DNA of 40,389 nucleotides from Deltaproteobacteria bacterium (GTDB lineage Bacteria; Desulfobacterota; Desulfobulbia; Desulfobulbales; SURF-16). The DNA is taken from NCBI GenBank assembly GCA_029939635.1, contig JAOZSN010000003.1:1-40389 (forward strand), read 5' to 3'. Each line of letters opens with the position of its first letter. The first letter of the stretch is position 1. This document shows, piece after piece, positions 3,298 through 37,001 of the stretch. The translations under genes and the position numbers were made by a program. The notes below the pieces were generated by a model. The model was not told the origin of the DNA. It worked only from the letters and a program-made list of their open reading frames with translations, and made no database searches.

Positions 3298-3364
3298 TAG
3301 ATGTGTCCGGATATTTTTTTAGCGGTATATTAGGTGGTTACTGGATGGTGTTCTTTTGTTGGGG

Positions 3365-3418
3365 CGTAATCCCACCAAACAAAATGACATTTTTGTAATT
3401 TTGTTTGGTGGGATTACG
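3365..3418. repeat. Perfect 21-bp inverted repeat with a 12-nt spacer; function unclear (MCP gene terminator-like hairpin or upstream regulatory site for amtB)
   Basis: CGTAATCCCACCAAACAAAAT (3365-3385) pairs perfectly with ATTTTGTTTGGTGGGATTACG (3398-3418). It lies 19 nt past the MCP stop and about 70-135 nt upstream of the sigma-54 promoter. No U-tract follows on the minus strand. Confidence 0.6.
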
Positions 3419-3436
3419 AAAATGAAAGGCAGTGGG

Positions 3437-4951
3437 TTACGGTAGGAACATGGTGTCGTGATCAGCTTCATCCTGCTGCCAACTTTCCACTCCGCTTTCA
3501 GTGCTGTCTGTCTTGACCTTGAATTGGGACATGGAGGAGGAAAGGTTTCTGGCGTTTTCAGCAGTGTGCTGGATGCCACTGTCCAGCTCATGGATGGCTC
3601 GGTTGATTTGTTCAACACCTAGGGCCTGTTCAGTAGAGGCGGTGGTTATTTCGTTGATAATATTGGATACCTTGTCCATGTCTGTGGCAACATCACCAAA
3701 ATCTTCTTGGGCCTGAGTGACAAGATGTGATCCTTCTTGGACTTTATTAATGGTATTCTCTAAGAGCTCTGCAGTGCTCTTGGCTGCCTCGGCTGAGCGC
3801 ATGGCTAAATTCCGAACCTCTTCAGCCACCACAGCAAATCCTGCCCCTGCCTCACCAGCTCTTGCGGCCTCAACAGCCGCATTCAAGGCCAGCAGGTTAG
3901 TTTGAAAGGCTATCTCATCAATGGTTTTAATAATTTTTGATGTTTCTTGACTAGAGGTGGAAATGCCCTCCATGGCATGGGTGATTTTATTCATTGACTC
4001 GGCGGCACGAGTCACACCTTGGCCGGTATTTCCCACCATCTGATGGGCGGCACTGGTATTCTCTGAGTTTTGCTTTGTCATGGCATTGACCTCTTCCAGG
4101 GAAGAGGATGTTTCTTCCAATGATGCAGCCTGACTGCTGGCTGCATCAGAAAGCTTCAGCGATATGTCAGTGTTGGTCTGGATGGTCATATTGAGACTGC
4201 TGATGGCGCTGTTAAGGCTTTCGGCCATTTCTTGCAATTCATCTTCACCCTTGACCTCAAGCACGTGGGAAAAATCACTCATGCCTAATATTTTCGTGAA
4301 GGAGGTAACTTGGAGGAGACGTAAGATTACACTGCGTACCATAAGGATAAAGGCGACCATGGCAAAAATAATGATCGCCATGGTGATTATTGTCGTAACG
4401 CGCAAGGATGTCAGCGTTGAAAGCATGGTAGCAGAGGTCGTTGATTCGTCTTTTTTAATTACTGTGGTAATGGTTTTGAATGCCTCAAAGGCAGGGGTGT
4501 CGTCAATTTTAACAATTTTGTCAACCTCTGTTGCCGTCTTGCCTTGCGCTACGAGGGAGGCGGCGATATGCATATTGTCGCTGTAGGCCTTGGCAACGAG
4601 TTCAATCTTTTTTATGGCCTGCTGTTCTCTGTCTGTAGGGCTGATTTCTTTGAGCTGGCTGATGGCATTTTGCATGACGCTACTATTTTTCTTAAAACGA
4701 TCCTGGTACTTATCTTGGCCGCGGAGGACATAGTTTTTAAAATTATGAATAAAACCACCATAGCCAAATTGAGACTGAATTTCGCCAAGCAAGGCAAGTT
4801 TGGCCACGGACTGTTGATTATAGTCTGCCCATATCTGTTCAACCTGGTTCATGGAACGGTTCACCAAGATGATGGCTAATAAAATGGTAAGGCCAAGAAA
4901 CATGGAGAAAATTAAAGTTTTAAGTTTAATGGTGAGTCGCAAGGGATTCAT
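3437..4951 (-). CDS. Methyl-accepting chemotaxis protein
   Basis: Contains the conserved MCP signalling hairpin ([40 protein letters not shown]), two TM segments and a periplasmic sensor domain. I prefer the start at MNPLRL (4951; GAGG upstream) over the 5032 ORF start. Confidence 0.9.
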   Translation of the reverse strand: MNPLRLTIKLKTLIFSMFLGLTILLAIILVNRSMNQVEQIWADYNQQSVAKLALLGEIQSQFGYGGFIHNFKNYVLRGQDKYQDRFKKNSSVMQNAISQLKEISPTDREQQAIKKIELVAKAYSDNMHIAASLVAQGKTATEVDKIVKIDDTPAFEAFKTITTVIKKDESTTSATMLSTLTSLRVTTIITMAIIIFAMVAFILMVRSVILRLLQVTSFTKILGMSDFSHVLEVKGEDELQEMAESLNSAISSLNMTIQTNTDISLKLSDAASSQAASLEETSSSLEEVNAMTKQNSENTSAAHQMVGNTGQGVTRAAESMNKITHAMEGISTSSQETSKIIKTIDEIAFQTNLLALNAAVEAARAGEAGAGFAVVAEEVRNLAMRSAEAAKSTAELLENTINKVQEGSHLVTQAQEDFGDVATDMDKVSNIINEITTASTEQALGVEQINRAIHELDSGIQHTAENARNLSSSMSQFKVKTDSTESGVESWQQDEADHDTMFLP

Positions 4952-11545: not shown

Positions 11546-13231
11546 TTAGCGAAGGGTGCGGCTGTAGGCATCAACACCTTGGGCAATGCTATGGGCCAGA
11601 GAGGTGAGGTAGCTATTACTGCGCAGTCGCTTTTCTTCGGTTTTGTTGCTGACAAAGCCAATCTCAGTGAGAACCGAGGGCATGCTGGCACCAATAAGGA
11701 CGATGAAGGGCGCTTTTTTGACGCCTAGGTTACGGGTGGAAGGGTAGCTCTGGCGCAGGTCATTTACCATGGTACGCTGCATCACCCCAGCCATTTTTTT
11801 CGACTCATTGATCTTTGAGTTTTTCATCAGGTCAGAGAGGATATCCTGCAGAGCAGAGAGCTGCATGGAGGAGACGGCGTTTTCAAGGGCAGCAGCGGCA
11901 CGTTCCTCTGGGGTCGTGGCCAGGCTCAGGTAATAGGTTTCCACGCCATTGGCTCGACGGTTGGGGGCTGAGTTGGCATGGATGGAGACAAAGAGGTCGC
12001 CACCCTTGGTGTTGGCAATGGCGGTGCGTTCCTCTAGGGGGATAAATTTGTCACTGTCACGGGTGAGGATCACCTTGTAGCCTTTACGGCGTAATTCATC
12101 ACGTACCTTGCGGGCGACACGTAGGACAACATCTTTTTCCTGTAGACCGCTGATGCCGATGGCGCCAGGATCCTTGCCGCCATGCCCAGCATCAATGATC
12201 ACAGTCTTGACACCAAGCCCAAGCTGTTCCGCCAGGGTGTAATGGCGTCCTGTCTTGTTTGGGCGCGATTTGCGCTGGCGAGGCACCAGTTGCTTCACCT
12301 CTTTGCCGTGCACATCAATAACCACGCGGAATGGCTCCAAGAGGCTGAAAACCTTGTAGCGTCCAACAGATTCCATATCAAGGACAACCCGGGTGGTGGA
12401 TGGGTTAAATTGGGCGGCACGAGAACGTTTGAGCAGCCCGTCCTGGATGATGACTGGGTTTTGAAAGGTGCGGGGGATGCGAGTGTCCGACAGGTCAACA
12501 TAGAGGCGGCGTGGCGTATTGTCTTGGGCGTCAAGGATATGATCTTTAAAGCGCACAGGAGCAGAGGTCTCAATGACCACACGGGTATAGTTGTCACTGG
12601 ACCAGAAACGTATGGGGCCAGTAACATAGGCGGAACTGGGGGTAGGTAGGAGTGTGATCGGTGCGGCGGTTTCCTGGCCCGCCCGCTCTTTGGCATGTTC
12701 TTTAAGGCGCTGCAGGAGAAAACCAGCGGTGTTTTTTGCCTCTGGCTCAGTACCATAGCTGGTCAGGGCCTTGGCTAGCAGTCGTTCTTTATTTAGTATA
12801 CCTTCCTTATTCTTTAAAACCAAACGCCCCAGGGAGGCCATACCGCTTTCTGCCAGTTCATGGTTGGGGAAGTGGAAGATAAGATCTTCATAAAAGTCAG
12901 CTGATTTTTTTAGATCCTGGCGCTGCTTATGCTGCTGGTAGGACTTATTATACACCTTGCCCAACATGTACAAGGCCTTGGGGGCAACGGTGGTGTGCTC
13001 TGGATTTGAGTCATATGCCTTTTTAAACAGCGAGGCAGAGTAGAGCCAGTCGCTGCGGCTGGGAGATTTACTCTTAAAGCCAACAATGGTGTGGTAATGG
13101 GCTGCCGCCTGGGAGTAGCGTTTGCTGGTGATGTCGGGTGCATTGGTGGCTGCCAGGCAGATGGCTGAGGGTTGAAGGATGAAGAGGGTAAGGCACAGTA
13201 TAAAAAAGGAAAAGATTTGAATATTGAACAT
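11546..13231 (-). CDS. N-acetylmuramoyl-L-alanine amidase (AmiC-like, with AMIN domain)
   Basis: Amidase_3 motifs (IIDAGHGGKDPGA, FVSIHANS, GVETYYLS), an AMIN-like segment (IRFWSSDNYTRVVIETS) and an N-terminal signal peptide. All candidate starts (13231, 13303, 13342) lie inside repeat element A. Confidence 0.88.
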   Translation of the reverse strand: MFNIQIFSFFILCLTLFILQPSAICLAATNAPDITSKRYSQAAAHYHTIVGFKSKSPSRSDWLYSASLFKKAYDSNPEHTTVAPKALYMLGKVYNKSYQQHKQRQDLKKSADFYEDLIFHFPNHELAESGMASLGRLVLKNKEGILNKERLLAKALTSYGTEPEAKNTAGFLLQRLKEHAKERAGQETAAPITLLPTPSSAYVTGPIRFWSSDNYTRVVIETSAPVRFKDHILDAQDNTPRRLYVDLSDTRIPRTFQNPVIIQDGLLKRSRAAQFNPSTTRVVLDMESVGRYKVFSLLEPFRVVIDVHGKEVKQLVPRQRKSRPNKTGRHYTLAEQLGLGVKTVIIDAGHGGKDPGAIGISGLQEKDVVLRVARKVRDELRRKGYKVILTRDSDKFIPLEERTAIANTKGGDLFVSIHANSAPNRRANGVETYYLSLATTPEERAAAALENAVSSMQLSALQDILSDLMKNSKINESKKMAGVMQRTMVNDLRQSYPSTRNLGVKKAPFIVLIGASMPSVLTEIGFVSNKTEEKRLRSNSYLTSLAHSIAQGVDAYSRTLR

Positions 13232-13345
13232 CGAACATCGAACATCGAATTTTAAATAAGGTAATTGTTTTGTTGAATCGTGCCAGCGCAGCGTCTTCCG
13301 CATTGGATGTTCAGTGTTCAATGTTCGATGTTCGATGTTCATCTG
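13219..13345. repeat. Heptamer-armed inverted-repeat element, copy A (ORF-less)
   Basis: The left arm GAATATTGAACATCGAACATCGAACATCGAAT and right arm CATTGGATGTTCAGTGTTCAATGTTCGATGTTCGATGTTCATCTG flank a core with AATAAGGTA...TTGAATC...GCGCAGCG.CTTCC.CATT, homologous to copies B-E. It starts 1 nt after the mutS stop. Confidence 0.85.
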
Positions 13346-28700: not shown

Positions 28701-29675
28701 CTGAAGAAAAATTCCAAGACCAGTCATATCCCGGTTCATTTTATGTCTGCTGCTGATAAATCCCAACAGGCCAGGGAAATGGGTGCTATTGGTTATCTGG
28801 TGAAACCGGTAAGTGTGGAAAAGGTGCAGGAAACCTTTGCCATGCTGGAGGATGAGATCAGCCGCACTGTGAAAAAATTACTCATCGTTGAAGATCACCG
28901 TGATCAACGACGCAGTATGGTGGAGTTGATCAGTGACCCCCATATCGATATAAGCGGGGTGGCCACAGGTACTGAGGCCTGGAAACTGCTCAAAAAGGCC
29001 TCCTTTGACTGTATGATCCTTGATCTTGGTCTACAAGACATGGAGGGCTTCAAGTTGCTGGAGATGATCCGGGGCGATGAGGCACTCTGTAACCTACCGG
29101 TTATTATCTATACAGGCCGGGAGTTAACTCCGGATGAGGATGAGAAACTACGCCATTATTCATCGTCAATTATCATCAAGGGGGTCCAGTCACCAGAGAG
29201 GTTGCTGGCTGAGACCACCCTGTTCCTCCATCAGGTTGAGGCTGACCTGCCCGAGGATAAACAGCGCATGCTGGCCATGGCCCATAAGCGGGAGGATATC
29301 TTTGCGGCCAAAAAGGTATTGGTGGTGGATGATGATATGCGCAACGTCTTTGCCCTCTCCAGCGTATTGGAAGAAAAGGGCATGGAGGTGTTGGCCGCAG
29401 AAAACGGCAAAAAGGCCCTGGATATACTGGACAAAATTCAAGGTGTCAGCGTGGTGTTGATGGATATTATGATGCCGGAGATGGATGGTTTTGAGGCCAT
29501 GGCCCGGATTCGTTCCCAAGCCAAGTTTGCTAAACTTCCCATCATCGCCCTGACTGCCAAGGCCATGAAGGGTGATCGCCATAAATGCATTGAGGCTGGA
29601 GCCAATGATTATTTGGCCAAGCCGGTGGATGTGGAGAGACTTGTTTCTATGTTGCGGGTGTGGCTGTGTCAGTGA
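25731..29675 (+). CDS. Large hybrid sensor kinase HK2 (TM, sensor, TM, HAMP, Cys4-PAS, GAF, EELQ coiled coil, HisKA, HATPase, REC x3)
   Basis: 1314 aa. It contains HAMP (KPMQQLTRRANKIKAGDF), a PAS domain with C283/C288/C297/C302, and a GAF domain. It also has a duplicated 28-aa QQAEELQSQQEELQ(A/V)(S/T)NEEL coil and the H-box FLANMSHELRTPLN (His641). The G boxes are DSGIGI and GGTGLGLSI. The three receivers carry the motifs LLIIEDD, LLIVEDH and VLVVDDD. Confidence 0.93.
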   Translation: MIALKLRSHFIIYLTLITLVLSLILVYLLTNRLAEQALLGLDEYGQAMTMNSALISADYLLTEDYATLQQFAEDYASRPKVKKVSIADRYGSTIASSDMSRLGQHLAGSRAEWGEGSTCEISRDADGKGQLIVMAPIKMDTVLIGFTKVVICMDAMEASVAASRRQGILVGLVAWCLSVLFGLYVAGSLSKPMQQLTRRANKIKAGDFSSEEEVGQQVRELGEFSQALNVMAKTIGAREKSLREMVANLDILPTPVFSIDAQFLVTYINPAGAAAAHLTPAECLGHKCAELFNTPICNTAHCPMRQAMDSGLVSNGETTIGRNQEIIPVKFTTVAFRDGDGVVTGGLESFIDISELQHAFAQAELENTLRNAQLEISDRLRGEQDEETLCTTLLRELAKHIPFQAGTIYLVGEGHLLNLLASYAGQHNFESRPVFHFGEGITGQAAVEKRPIMLSNIPDDYVPVLSASGSSMPRHIIALPILFEGHVSGVIELATLNEFDGFSLELLDRVLENAAIAINMAQARARVGLLLGQTQQQAEELQSQQEELQASNEELREQTQALQKTETQLQQQAEELQSQQEELQVTNEELAERTQNLELQQNEVSRKNEALATQRNELLHKTEALETSNRYKAEFLANMSHELRTPLNSILILSQLFATNKEGNLNGKQLEFARTINSSGTELLTLINEVLDLSKVEAGHVQLDIVSLDLRDFLDAMEQSFAPVATERNITLVTELLDVPASITTDAQKLLQVVKNLLSNALKFTEKGEVRLRISRPPADMDCGVLAGRDGVAISVMDSGIGIAPEKQDLIFEAFQQVDGSISRRYGGTGLGLSIAKEFAGLLGGEIRLTSEVGHGSCFTVLVPDILAEQSVQEGETTKVVSVAPVVLPAEKKESVLKAGQQAEEDRAEEGQDVADDRKNLADDDKILLIIEDDSAFSEVLADLAHERGFKCVLASDGESGLHYADYYQPGAIILDIGLPGMDGWQVMDSLKKNSKTSHIPVHFMSAADKSQQAREMGAIGYLVKPVSVEKVQETFAMLEDEISRTVKKLLIVEDHRDQRRSMVELISDPHIDISGVATGTEAWKLLKKASFDCMILDLGLQDMEGFKLLEMIRGDEALCNLPVIIYTGRELTPDEDEKLRHYSSSIIIKGVQSPERLLAETTLFLHQVEADLPEDKQRMLAMAHKREDIFAAKKVLVVDDDMRNVFALSSVLEEKGMEVLAAENGKKALDILDKIQGVSVVLMDIMMPEMDGFEAMARIRSQAKFAKLPIIALTAKAMKGDRHKCIEAGANDYLAKPVDVERLVSMLRVWLCQ

Positions 29676-29684
29676 TTAAAAAAA

Positions 29685-30194
29685 TTGAACATCGAACGTC
29701 CAACATCGAACATCGAATGATGAATGAAAAGACAAAAGATGAAGACACAAACGTATGATTTGGAAGAGCGGTTGCTTGAGTATTCTGTACGAATTATAAA
29801 AATTGTTGAGCAGTTGCCAAACTCAAGAACGGGTAATCATGTTGCTGGGCAGTTATTACGCTCAGGAACATCGCCCTATCCAAATCATGGTGAGGCTCAG
29901 GCCGCTGAGTCACCAAATGATTTTATTCATAAGTTGCGTATCTCTCTAAAGGAGCTACGGGAATCGCAAAGATGGTTAAAGTTAAGTCAAAGGATCCCAC
30001 TCATAACAAAACCTGAGCTATTGGATAATATTTTGCTGGAGACAGAAGAGTTAATTAAGATTTTTGTAACCAGTATTAAGACGGCAGAGAAGAATAAGAG
30101 AAGGTGAATATGCTATCTCCTTGTCAATTAGTTAGAGCGCAGCTATTTCCTCATTCGACGTTGAACGTTCGATGTTCGATGTTCGACGTTCATC
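29685..30194. mobile_element. Heptamer-armed inverted-repeat cassette, copy E, carrying a four-helix-bundle protein gene
   Basis: The left arm is TTGAACATCGAACGTCCAACATCGAACATCGAATGATGAATG (29685-29726). The right arm is CATTCGACGTTGAACGTTCGATGTTCGATGTTCGACGTTCATC (30152-30194). They enclose ORF 29724-30107 and a 44-nt tail homologous to the cores of the short copies. Confidence 0.7.
29724..30107 (+). CDS. Four-helix-bundle protein (23S rRNA intervening-sequence protein family; Avd-like)
   Basis: 127 aa. YDLEERLLEYSVRIIKIVEQLP...GNHVAGQLLRSGTSPYPNHGEAQAAES..DFIHKLRISLKELRESQRWL matches the TIGR02436/PF05635-type pattern. An alternative ATG lies at 29739. Confidence 0.82.
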   Translation: MKRQKMKTQTYDLEERLLEYSVRIIKIVEQLPNSRTGNHVAGQLLRSGTSPYPNHGEAQAAESPNDFIHKLRISLKELRESQRWLKLSQRIPLITKPELLDNILLETEELIKIFVTSIKTAEKNKRR

Positions 30195-30206
30195 TTCTTC
30201 AAGGAT

Positions 30207-31043
30207 GTGCCAGTGACAACTGATCATGAAACCTCAAAAATCGAAGTCACCCTCCTTCTAGAGGCGATCTATCTGAAGTACGGCTATGATTTCCGCAATT
30301 ATTCCAGTGCCCATATCAGGCGCCGGATCAGGCGGCGTCAGGAGTTGACAGGTATGGAGAATATCTCGGCCATGCAGCATCGTCTCCTCCATGATGAAGA
30401 GTTTTTTCAGACCGTACTATATGACCTGTCGATTAATGTTACGGAGATGTTTCGTGATCCTGCCTTCTATCTGGCTGTACGTGAGAAAGTTGTGCCGATT
30501 TTGGCCACCCATTCTTTTATAAAGGTCTGGCATGCAGGTTGTTCAACCGGAGAGGAACTTTACTCCATGGCTATCCTGCTCAAGGAGGCAGGGTTGTATG
30601 ATCGTTTGCAGCTTTATGGCACTGATTTTAACGAATTAGTTTTACAGAAGGCCAGGGAAGGGATTGTGCCGGCCAAGGCGATAAAGGATTATACCGATAA
30701 TTATCAACGGGGCGGTGGCATCAGTTCATTTTCAGACTACTACACCGCAAAATATGAGCGTGCCTTGCTGGCTCCAGAGCTAAAAAAAAAGATACTCTTT
30801 GCCAATCATAACCTGGTCACCGATCAGGTCTTTGGGGAGATGCAGATGATTGTCTGTCGCAACGTGCTTATTTATTTTAGTCGAGAATTGCAAAAAAAGG
30901 TTATCACCCTTTTTTACGACAGCCTCTGTCGCGGCGGCATCCTCTGTCTTGGCAGCAGAGAGAGTCTGCAATTTTCAGGGTTGGCAGATCGTTTCAGCCA
31001 GCTGGTGGATGGTGAGCAGATTTATCAGAAGATGTATGAGTGA
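30207..31043 (+). CDS. cheR: CheR-type protein-glutamate O-methyltransferase
   Basis: Has the CheR N-terminal helical domain (YGYDFRNY, TEMFRDP) and the SAM-binding fold (VWHAGCSTGEELYSMAILL, IVCRNVLIYF). The start is GTG 30207 or 30213 (AAGGA RBS). Confidence 0.9.
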   Translation: MPVTTDHETSKIEVTLLLEAIYLKYGYDFRNYSSAHIRRRIRRRQELTGMENISAMQHRLLHDEEFFQTVLYDLSINVTEMFRDPAFYLAVREKVVPILATHSFIKVWHAGCSTGEELYSMAILLKEAGLYDRLQLYGTDFNELVLQKAREGIVPAKAIKDYTDNYQRGGGISSFSDYYTAKYERALLAPELKKKILFANHNLVTDQVFGEMQMIVCRNVLIYFSRELQKKVITLFYDSLCRGGILCLGSRESLQFSGLADRFSQLVDGEQIYQKMYE

Positions 31044-31050
31044 AAAGGAA

Positions 31051-31184
31051 TGAATGCCGAACATCGAACATTGAACATTGAACAGCGAATTTTGAATGTG
31101 GAAGCCGCTGCGCTCGGATTGATTCAAGGGATTCTGAAATAGATAAATACCTCATTGGGCGTTGGATGTTGGATGTTCGACGTT
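31051..31184. repeat. Heptamer-armed inverted-repeat element, copy B (ORF-less, inverted relative to C/D)
   Basis: The sequence reads GAACATCGAACATTGAACATTGAACAGCGAATTTTGAATGTGGAAGCCGCTGCGCTCGG...CCTCATTGGGCGTTGGATGTTGGATGTTCGACGTT. Its reverse complement aligns with copies C, D and A. Confidence 0.85.
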
Positions 31185-31212
31185 AAGTCTGTAAAATAGT
31201 GCAGGTGAGGCC

Positions 31213-31842
31213 ATGGCACAGCGAGAACAAAAAAAAATAGCCTACGACGCCATCGTCATCGGTGTCTCCTTCGGCGGTCTCCAGGCCCTGTTGTCTCTCT
31301 TGCCGAGCCTGGGTGCTGATTTTCCGGTGCCGATCATGGTGGTGCAGCATCATGCCGCCCAGGCCGATGATTTCTTGGCTCGTCATTTAGATAGCTTGTG
31401 TCAGCTTCAGGTTAAGATGGCTGAGGAAAAGGAGATGGCGCAGGCAGGAGTTGTCTATCTGGCCCCGGCTAATTATCATTTACTGGTAGAGGATAATCAG
31501 AGCCTCTCCCTTTCGGTTGATGAGAAGGTGAATTTTGCCAGACCAGCCATTGATGTCCTCTTTGAGAGTGCTGCAGATGCCTATGGGGCACGGTTGGTTG
31601 GTGTTGTCCTCACCGGTGCCAATAATGATGGTAGTAAGGGCTTGCGATGCATCAAGGAGTATGGTGGTTTGGCTGTGGTGCAGGACCCGCAAACTGCGGA
31701 GGCACCAAGTATGCCAGAGGCTGCCTTGGCAGCGTGCGAGGTGGATCATGTTGTGCCCCTTGCTGAAATAGGAGCGTTTTTGAATACGCTATTAATGGGA
31801 AAAATAAAAGATGAACGTCGAACATCGAACATTCAACATTGA
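31213..31842 (+). CDS. cheB: CheB-type protein-glutamate methylesterase, catalytic domain only (no receiver)
   Basis: 209 aa with GVSFGG (Ser), VVQH (His) and ARPAIDVLF (Asp) triad contexts, plus LTGANNDG. The last 10 codons and the stop lie inside element C. Confidence 0.88.
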   Translation: MAQREQKKIAYDAIVIGVSFGGLQALLSLLPSLGADFPVPIMVVQHHAAQADDFLARHLDSLCQLQVKMAEEKEMAQAGVVYLAPANYHLLVEDNQSLSLSVDEKVNFARPAIDVLFESAADAYGARLVGVVLTGANNDGSKGLRCIKEYGGLAVVQDPQTAEAPSMPEAALAACEVDHVVPLAEIGAFLNTLLMGKIKDERRTSNIQH

Positions 31843-31932
31843 ACATCTAATAAGGTACTATCAAGTTGAATTAGTGAGAGTGAAGCGATTCCTACATTCA
31901 AAATTCGATGTTCAATGTTCGACGTTCATCTG
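31810..31932. repeat. Heptamer-armed inverted-repeat element, copy C (ORF-less)
   Basis: The termini AGATGAACGTCGAACAT and ATGTTCGACGTTCATCT are perfect 17-nt inverted repeats. The core is AATAAGGTACTATCAAGTTGAATTAGTGAGAGTGAAGCGATTCCTACATTCAAAATTCG. Confidence 0.9.
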
Positions 31933-32613: not shown

Positions 32614-32718
32614 GATGAACATCGAACGTAGAACATTGAACATTCAACGTCGAATAAGGTACTATCTAATTTGAGTGAGAGTGAAGCGAATTCTACATTC
32701 AAAATTCGACGTTCATCT
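32614..32718. repeat. Heptamer-armed inverted-repeat element, copy D (ORF-less, short right arm)
   Basis: The sequence is GATGAACATCGAACGTAGAACATTGAACATTCAACGTCGAATAAGGTACTATCTAATTTGAGTGAGAGTGAAGCGAATTCTACATTCAAAATTCGACGTTCATCTG, nearly collinear with copy C. Confidence 0.9.
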
Positions 32719-36837: not shown

Positions 36838-36870
36838 TGGGGGAGCCAGGTAACGCCTTTATATTATTAA

Positions 36871-37001
36871 CAACGAATATCGAGGTCACAAGAAATGTCG
36901 AATGATCAAGGGTGGATGATGTCTTAATAAATAAAGAAAATATACCCCCAAGGGCACTTCCTTCGACATTCGAAATTTCTTGTTCGATATTCTGCGGTTC
37001 G
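36871..37001. repeat. Inverted-repeat element, diverged subtype, copy F
   Basis: GAATATCGAGGTCACAAGAAATGTCGAATG pairs with CATTCGAAATTTCTTGTTCGATATTC. The core ...GGGCACTTCCTTCGACATTCG echoes the G.G.CTTCC.CATTC core of copies A-E. It lies between the PSP1 gene stop (37008) and the metG start (36837). Confidence 0.7.

Follow-up and report, generated by a model that had tools for sequence, protein, structure and literature searches.

We studied a stretch of 40,389 nucleotides from a Deltaproteobacteria bacterium (assembly GCA_029939635.1, contig JAOZSN010000003.1), hereafter the window, and in it a small gene cassette located between the genes for a hybrid histidine kinase (HK) and for CheR, and not within a 23S rRNA gene. 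Reading the sequence directly, the HK stop codon lies at 29673-29675 and the cheR open reading frame (ORF) opens with GTG at 30207. The HK-cheR gap of 531 nt is filled by the cassette, which consists of a gene for a four-helix-bundle (4HB) protein between two arms of tandem heptamers. According to Pfam, the genes around it encode the hybrid HK, CheR, CheB, a receiver protein, and another hybrid HK. From left to right, the features of the locus are as follows:

29665-29675, plus strand: left copy of a candidate target-site duplication, TGTGTCAGTGA (last HK codons and stop TGA)
29685-29726, plus strand: left arm, six heptamers, TTGAACA TCGAACG TCCAACA TCGAACA TCGAATG ATGAATG
29739-30107, plus strand: 4HB gene (PF05635, TIGR02436, 2RLD, family start mapping)
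30108-30151, plus strand: 3' spacer with a GAGCG-N-AGC motif (GAGCGCAGC at 30135-30143), just inside the right arm
30152-30194, plus strand: right arm, CATTCGACGTTGAACGTTCGATGTTCGATGTTCGACGTTCATC (= CATTCGAC GTTGAAC GTTCGAT GTTCGAT GTTCGAC GTTCATC)
30195-30216, plus strand: right end of the insert and cheR start region, with AAGGA at 30201-30205 followed by TGTGCCAGTGA at 30206-30216

Two candidate cheR starts, GTG 30207 and GTG 30213, both fall inside TGTGCCAGTGA, and on direct reading the AAGGA at the right end of the insert stands 7 nt ahead of GTG 30213.

The ORF of the cassette was first called at 29724-30107, and an initial annotation of this DNA had described it as a 127-aa gene of the 23S-IVS/Avd-like family (IVS, intervening sequence). 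The ORF is real, but comparison with 71 homologous loci places the family-conserved start at ATG 29739 (MK.QTYDLEER), giving a protein of 122 aa and leaving the in-frame ATG 29724 as an alternative upstream start. The family assignment stands: the product matches PF05635 (E 2.8e-13, 50.4 bits versus a cutoff of 33.8) and TIGR02436, 'four helix bundle protein' (E 9.7e-24, 83.7 bits versus a cutoff of 24), and over residues 9-119 it resembles PDB 2RLD (E 2.1e-16), an entry with five chains. Besides these two profiles, the scan of the ORF returned just two weak, sub-cutoff PRK12275 NCBIfam models and no HUH or transposase model; searches of PADLOC and PHROGs were negative, and its exact 127-aa sequence was not on record in a contig look-up. 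At both gathering and E-value thresholds, Rfam yielded nothing relevant for the cassette and hairpins of the window or for 12 other loci, and no rRNA in the window.

The right arm is the reverse-complement heptamer array of the left arm, with even the order of the variant units mirrored. Each arm has six in-phase NNN[GCT]AA[CT] units, so that the description of the ORF as bounded by inverted arms of tandem heptamers is upheld by the sequence and by repeat searches alike: an inverted-repeat search delimits arms of 31-52 nt that are 75-87% complementary, and Tandem Repeats Finder reports period-7 arrays at 29687-29717 and 30167-30191. Allowing up to three mismatches, GAACATCGAACATC occurs 35 times in the window versus 3.0 expected (shuffle maximum 8), and because of this excess the heptamer arms are no chance feature. 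Bacterial intergenic DNA contains an excess of heptamer simple-sequence repeats, whose length changes through slippage (PMC4692102), which would allow the arms to be a product of local replication slippage and chance, unlinked to the ORF. The excess of matches, the mirrored order of variant heptamers, the presence of the same arms around homologous ORFs in ~70 other loci, and control ORFs without such flanks all contradict it; a slippage origin is refuted by the comparative data, and we leave it practically no room.

In RNA folds of 29670-30210, the two arms pair with each other in both the minimum free energy and the centroid structure (-151.3 kcal/mol, z = -4.2). The predicted stem has ~30 bp, with the HK stop 13 nt before its base and the cheR ribosome-binding site 5 nt after. 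The architecture proposed in the initial annotation, an ORF in a stem within a polycistronic signalling operon, thus agrees with both the fold and the Pfam neighbours.

The same annotation had seen no recognizable diversity-generating retroelement (DGR). The cassette shares with DGRs the fold family of Avd, and PF05635 includes Avd-like proteins encoded beside DGR reverse transcriptases (PMC10053308), so the gene could be an orphan Avd gene, the remnant of a DGR. However, among eight neighbouring proteins, the Pfam scan detected no reverse transcriptase; all the domains were of signalling, transport, and receptor types. In 29600-30300, we found no template/variable repeat pair, only the arms and short trivial repeats, although no search specific for such pairs covered the whole window. 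Moreover, the neighbours in 80 homologous loci are ordinary host genes and not DGR parts. A DGR remnant is effectively refuted at this locus, and we hold it to be very improbable.

The cassette belongs to a large family. More than 7,900 database relatives of the 4HB protein were found at E < 1e-5, and a full scan gave 6,985 clusters at 50% identity with E <= 1e-3. The best 120 relatives are 80-92% identical, fall in different 90% clusters, and come mostly from Desulfobacterota metagenome-assembled genomes. For comparison, we sampled 80 homologous loci of 73-90% identity from species-representative genomes (loci are designated by L numbers). The layout of arms, ORF, and arms is found in at least ~70 of the 80, with a plus-sense GAACATC array 0-62 nt 5' of the ORF and the complementary array 3-140 nt 3' of it; the cassette is therefore a discrete unit present in many genomes. 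Its general form is AAAAGATGAAC ATCGAAC ATCGAAC GTCCAAC ATCGAAT GTTGAAT GGGAAAAG-ATG...stop-spacer-CATTCGATGTTGGACGTTCGATGTTCGATGTTCATCTTTTAA, in which the spacer measures 20-140 nt. Across the family, the modal number of units per arm is six, and an earlier notion of five units per arm, matching a pentamer, was dropped for this reason. The stems have a median of 28-32 bp and 93-95% Watson-Crick pairs, and arms within an element are slightly more alike than arms from different elements (24.3 versus 22.9, a value reached in 2 of 5000 permutations).

The ORF typically encodes 121 aa and is interrupted, as a pseudogene, in seven of the 80 copies. With a median dN of 0.08 and dS of 0.77 (dN/dS 0.097, 74 homologues), it is under strong purifying selection. 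The copy in the window shows ~78% DNA identity and 88-90% protein identity to its nearest sampled relatives, and copies from the same genome are often less alike than copies from different genomes. Cassettes were also seen in bins assigned to Kiritimatiellae, PVC (Planctomycetes-Verrucomicrobia-Chlamydiae), Nitrospirota, and Chlamydiota, which horizontal transfer or errors in binning may explain. In 66 of 71 loci, and in nine of the 12 annotated plasmid loci described below, the next gene upstream runs in the same direction as the ORF. In the window, a promoter scan gave no plus-strand promoter-like site ahead of the ORF and nothing beyond shuffle expectation; intrinsic terminator sites were no more numerous than in shuffles, and the right arm is followed by CTTCTTC and not by a U run. 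Because the upstream gene is co-directional and no promoter-like site was found, the cassette appears to depend on host read-through: these data suggest that it lacks its own promoter and that its transcription is part of that of the host operon.

Some further features were noted in the sampled loci. Direct heptamer arrays of other units (GGGTACT, CACAGRG, GGTTTCA, AGTTTCA, TAACACC) flank the cassettes of L002, L007, L018, L033, and L006, whose genomes seem to hold several heptamer families. Some arms in L026, L025, L071, L046, and L028 are broken by short GC-rich palindromes, for example CGCCAAAGGCGAGCAAGCACTTGTCCGCCTCCGGCGG, which suggests a second small element inserting into the arrays. 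In the databases, many homologues have an annotated N-terminus that is longer by 20-70 residues, likely because gene callers read through the upstream heptamer array, which is free of stops.

Comparison of the operon with 80 metagenomic cheR relatives points to an insertion. The closest, L082 and L083 (CheR 74-75% identical, with the same HK C-terminus, ...RVWLCQ*), have the HK-cheR junction TGTCAATAATGG, where the HK stop overlaps the cheR start (TAATG type); more distant relatives have a TGATG junction. Neither L082 nor L083 has hairpins at any junction, and in HK-cheR-cheB-RR (RR, response regulator) of L082 no inverted repeat reaches 16 nt. In the window, TGTGTCAGTGA (29665-29675) and TGTGCCAGTGA (30206-30216) form an 11-nt direct repeat with one mismatch, a score reached in ~2% of cross-locus controls. 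Removing the insert together with one repeat copy yields ...TGTCAGTGACAACTG, in which the HK stop TGA overlaps the cheR GTG start (GTGA), as in the relatives. Our reading is a candidate target-site duplication of ~11 nt that left both genes intact. The view of the cassette as an inserted, dispersed element is borne out by the empty HK-cheR junctions of the closest relatives, this duplication, and the many copies in other genomes.

In different lineages, this junction holds three 4HB subfamilies that are unrelated to one another and differ in their heptamer arms. The positions of the 4HB cassettes at HK-cheR junctions are:

L109: 586-939
L118: 2064-2417
L155 and L156: 2052-2441
L157: 2017-2397
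window: 29676-30205

HK-cheR may be an insertion hotspot, at junctions with overlapping stop and start, or the recurrence may denote a functional link. In L119, the HK-cheR junction measures ~500 nt and is filled with repeats.

The initial annotation had placed the heptamer arms at the HK-cheR gap. They are real there, but the site is not unique: at least four further sites in the window (a lower bound) have the same GAACATC-type heptamers as inverted pairs that fold into strong hairpins, with loops of 50-75 nt and without an ORF, and three of these four are the next junctions of the same signalling operon:

13219-13340: between two minus-strand genes (RNA fold -51.9 kcal/mol, z = -6.75)
31052-31185: cheR-cheB junction, with the loop in reverse orientation (z = -2.3)
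31813-31927: junction of cheB and the response regulator gene (z = -5.8)
32614-32717: junction of the response regulator gene and the next hybrid kinase gene (z = -3.6)

The loops of the short hairpins end in sequences similar to the inner ends of the long cassette (GAATTTTGAATAAGGTA and GAATGTTGAATGGGAAA), and a GAGCG-N-AGCG...CATT motif lies just inside the right arm in both. Because of these matches, the short hairpins look like internal-deletion derivatives of the long cassette. The GAGCG-N-AGC motif occupies the same position in ~21 of 81 long cassettes, and sites 1 and 3 of the window share its C variant. In its core, GCGNAGC, N is the sole variable position (G 14, A 5, C 1, T 1). In form, this core is a GNA-loop DNA mini-hairpin, a very stable structure, which may point to a stage as single-stranded DNA. 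Two other repeats were observed. At 36868-36992 in the window, a weaker inverted repeat between two minus-strand genes (CGAATATCGA...TCGATATTCG) has related composition, is not heptamer-periodic, and folds strongly (z = -5.3), and the cheR-cheB gap of L091 (~3310-3480) holds an ORF-less hairpin of a different heptamer, GGTTCAG / GTGAACC.

The presence of arrays at four consecutive junctions of one operon raises the possibility of a host regulatory module, with the 4HB protein acting as a post-transcriptional regulator of TRAP or CsrA type and the junction hairpins (HK-cheR, cheR-cheB, cheB-RR, RR-HK) as operators that set cistron expression or stability. The strong purifying selection on the protein and the recurrence of three different 4HB subfamilies at the HK-cheR junction would fit such a role. 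However, the closest orthologous operons lack both the gene and all hairpins, near-identical cassettes stand beside unrelated genes in many genomes, including bins of several phyla, pseudogene copies are present, and divergence is often greater within a genome than between genomes. Empty operons, unrelated neighbours, pseudogenes, and divergence within genomes are together typical of a selfish element, and we therefore consider a regulatory module improbable.

The association of 4HB genes with inverted arrays extends to other subfamilies. A hidden Markov model of the family, run over the collected loci, detected divergent 4HB ORFs, each of them flanked by inverted arrays of 7-9-nt units, the unit differing between subfamilies. 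A tblastn search of plasmids gave 31 records, and the 12 loci examined (Cyanobacteriota, Chloroflexota, Bacteroidota, Spirochaetota, Bacillota) all display this design. Such flanks are present at every divergent 4HB gene closely examined (18 lineages, five phyla), and also at 11 or more of the 16 4HB loci examined in viral contigs (17 were returned). The units include:

L109 and L118: TTGAAGA / TCTTCAA
L155-L157: AATTGRA / ATTTCAA
L003: TYAGTGA / TCACTNA
L011: GGATTCA / TGAATCC
L095: an 8-mer unit
L001: a 9-mer unit
Nostoc flagelliforme: four AATTCGT / four ACGAATT, a perfect 36-bp stem (z = -7.8)
Nostoc punctiforme: AATTCGC
Gloeocapsa: ATTTTAG
Planktothrix: AATCGTA and AATCCCC
Anabaena cylindrica: GTAAAAA
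Euhalothece: CACTGGT
Pseudanabaena and Chlorohelix: GATGAAG
Bernardetia: 16 TTAGTGA
Chondrinema: TAACTGA-like units
Treponema: GGAAAGY
Monoglobus: AATTAGG

Often the right array starts at the stop codon and the left array stops a few bases ahead of the ATG. For control ORFs taken from these loci, the median inverted-repeat score is 6 (95th percentile 9), a percentile exceeded by 12 of 16 4HB genes (Mann-Whitney p = 1e-8). Scores of 12 or above were reached among the controls only by two 4HB genes that had escaped masking and by a spurious ORF of L119, which is built of repeats. Proteins close to each other in sequence have related units: AATTCGT and AATTCGC at 73% protein identity, AATCGTA and AATCTAA at 69%, and GATGAAG in both members of a further pair at 69%. 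The related units of close proteins sometimes have the two arms swapped. In the two whole plasmids analysed, most of the strong period-7 arrays consist of the units that flank the 4HB gene, and they lie within ~7 kb of it; the Gloeocapsa plasmid has two AATCAAA arrays that are also near the 4HB gene. The hosts of divergent cassettes are usually co-directional gene pairs.

Several of these cassettes (L163, L167, L161, L164, L169, L172) were observed in defence operons: csx2-cas1, cas2/cas1 (antisense), helicase-methylase, DUF1156-Swt1 HEPN, and hsdS-hsdR. The AATCCCC of L164 (Planktothrix plasmid3) is the reverse complement of GGGGATT, a G-quadruplex repeat reported for Nostoc PCC 7120, and the TAACTGA-like flanking units of L171 (Chondrinema plasmid) correspond to the Beggiatoaceae repeat. 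To the extent that this limited sample allows, we infer that these published orphan repeats are linked to the 4HB gene family.

At least nine loci (L012, L020, L022, L023, L027, L033, L037, L038, L055) have the cassette nested in a separate element; these are the loci with both outer ends mapped, and there are probably several more. The outer element measures ~600-730 bp, has the ends CATAAGCGCTAAGTT...AACTTAGCGCTTATG and extends ~75 nt to either side of the cassette. Direct duplications of 8-12 bp of host sequence surround most copies (for example, CTGGAGACCCCC in L020 and GGTGGTAAGCCT in L023; that of L022 is weak), and it looks like a true vehicle of the MITE (miniature inverted-repeat transposable element) type. 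These nested copies bear on an alternative in which the mobile unit is the hairpin itself, similar to MITEs or to repetitive extragenic palindromes (REPs) and served by a transposase encoded elsewhere, while the 4HB gene was captured in the loop as a passenger. It would agree with the nested loci and their duplications, with the 11-nt duplication in the window, with ORF-less hairpins outnumbering the ORF-bearing copy there, and with the absence of a catalytic motif from the 4HB protein. Yet inverted arrays accompany the gene in every subfamily and phylum sampled, with a unit that tracks the protein; a dN/dS of ~0.1 over hundreds of copies is unexpected for a passenger gene; and no transposase adjoins any copy in the flanks inspected. 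We regard capture of a passenger gene as unlikely.

We therefore think it probable that the DNA in the HK-cheR gap was inserted and is one copy of a widespread cassette, selfish and IVS-like, made of a functional 4HB gene between inverted, subfamily-specific heptamer arrays. The observations on which the initial annotation would have stood or fallen point the same way: the arms pair, the family match holds, and there are both empty sites and further copies. Within the mRNA of the operon, the arms would pair as a stem of ~30 bp with the 4HB ORF looped out. This stem would place the HK stop near the cheR ribosome-binding site, which would limit damage to the operon and mitigate the loss of the ancestral translational coupling between HK and cheR. 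By analogy with the ORF-bearing IVSs of 23S rRNA, its length would suffice for an RNase III substrate, and processing there might, as the initial annotation had proposed, affect the stability of the HK and cheR transcripts. At the DNA level, insertion would have duplicated ~11 nt of target, by means of an enzyme not encoded in the cassette. Any inverted repeat gives a stem, so the stem alone does not explain the periodicity of units. A periodicity of 7-9 nt that survives changes of the unit implies a reader of the units, for which the 4HB protein is the obvious candidate. Its relatives Avd and S23p are pentameric nucleic-acid binders; Avd forms a basic barrel of five subunits, and its partners are nucleic acid and the reverse transcriptase of the DGR. 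The 4HB protein would probably recognize its own tandem-repeat arrays, which would account for the 7-9-nt arrays in every subfamily and for the change of unit with the protein; such binding might serve autoregulation, propagation, or both.

Several observations weigh against this interpretation. No catalytic domain is recognizable in the 4HB protein, and the cassette encodes nothing capable of cutting or joining DNA. Target duplications adjoining the arms are neither consistent across 74 loci nor in excess over cross-locus controls, and the relatives with empty sites are only ~75% identical. As for the stem, G:U mismatches between arms show no bias toward the sense RNA (sense 32-51 versus antisense 47-70, p ~0.1), and for lack of such a bias, selection on the stem at the RNA level is unproven; arm sequences are also conserved between loci, which makes selection for pairing inseparable from selection for binding sites. 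As for the protein, its AlphaFold2 model has five helical segments with a mean pLDDT (predicted local distance difference test) of only 52.8 (21 close homologues), the modal six units per arm have no simple mapping onto a pentamer, and the Bernardetia and Treponema proteins are 57% identical and have unrelated units.

The cassette resembles several known systems, each in part. Ralph and McClelland reportedly described ORF-containing IVSs in the 23S rRNA of Leptospira in 1993; to our knowledge, the function of the 23S-IVS 4HB protein and the reason why these IVSs carry ORFs have been unexplained since then. These rRNA elements (Leptospira; Coxiella burnetii S23p) share with the cassette a homologous PF05635 ORF within complementary ends that form a long stem, and RNase III excises them from 23S rRNA (Warrier et al. 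2016, PMC4990558). Like them, the cassette is probably transcribed within a host RNA; both are patchily distributed, which suggests horizontal spread, and lack an enzyme of their own. Unlike the IVSs, which lie in helix 9, 25, or 45 of 23S rRNA, the cassette lies between protein-coding cistrons of an mRNA, its arms are tandem heptamer arrays, and ORF-less derivatives are found nearby. REPs, in their BIME (bacterial interspersed mosaic element) arrangements and together with RAYT genes (REPtrons), share with it palindromic extragenic repeats at gene junctions, a protein gene flanked by inverted copies, and a repeat sequence proper to each protein subfamily. However, RAYTs belong to the Y1 (HUH) transposases, whose catalytic fold is known, whereas the 4HB protein has no catalytic motif, and REPs are single imperfect palindromes, whereas the cassette repeats are arrays of 7-9-nt tandem units. 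MITEs and transposon ends of the inverted-repeat/direct-repeat type have in common with it terminal inverted repeats, dispersed copies, internal-deletion derivatives outnumbering the ORF copy, and a candidate target duplication; they differ in that the flanks inspected here contain no transposase and the arms of the 74 loci adjoin no consistent duplication.

The cassette also resembles published heptamer repeats: GGGAATC in Xanthomonas and GGGGA(T/C)T in Nostoc (PMC4692102), TAACTGA in Beggiatoaceae, Cyanobacteria, and Bacteroidetes (PMC4679880), and the cyanobacterial short tandemly repeated repetitive (STRR) sequences. Like its arms, these are intergenic, have 2-26 tandem units, are sometimes inverted, and are lineage-specific, with a function left unexplained; the published arrays are mostly direct, whereas those of the cassette are inverted pairs. 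Neither PMC4692102 nor PMC4679880 mentions a 4HB gene, and we found no report linking 4HB genes with heptamer arrays in the open-access literature or bioRxiv, although a prior description in subscription journals is possible.

Tentatively, we put forward a broader hypothesis, which may well prove wrong in part or whole: that PF05635 proteins are sequence-specific binders of short tandem-repeat arrays, and that protein and cognate arrays would form a new class of selfish system, similar to RAYT-REP but without a known catalytic protein, which lives as looped-out inserts in operon junctions and in rRNA (the classical ORF-bearing IVSs) and whose ORF-less derivatives would explain part of the heptamer excess (STRR, GGGAATC/GGGGATT, TAACTGA). 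The IVSs of rRNA would then be reframed as one habitat of a much larger family of elements. The cassette suggests how an insertion between translationally coupled genes may spare the operon. It also ties together two puzzles, the role of the ORFs in IVSs and the intergenic excess of heptamers (PMC4692102, PMC4679880), in a testable hypothesis of binding between protein and repeat.

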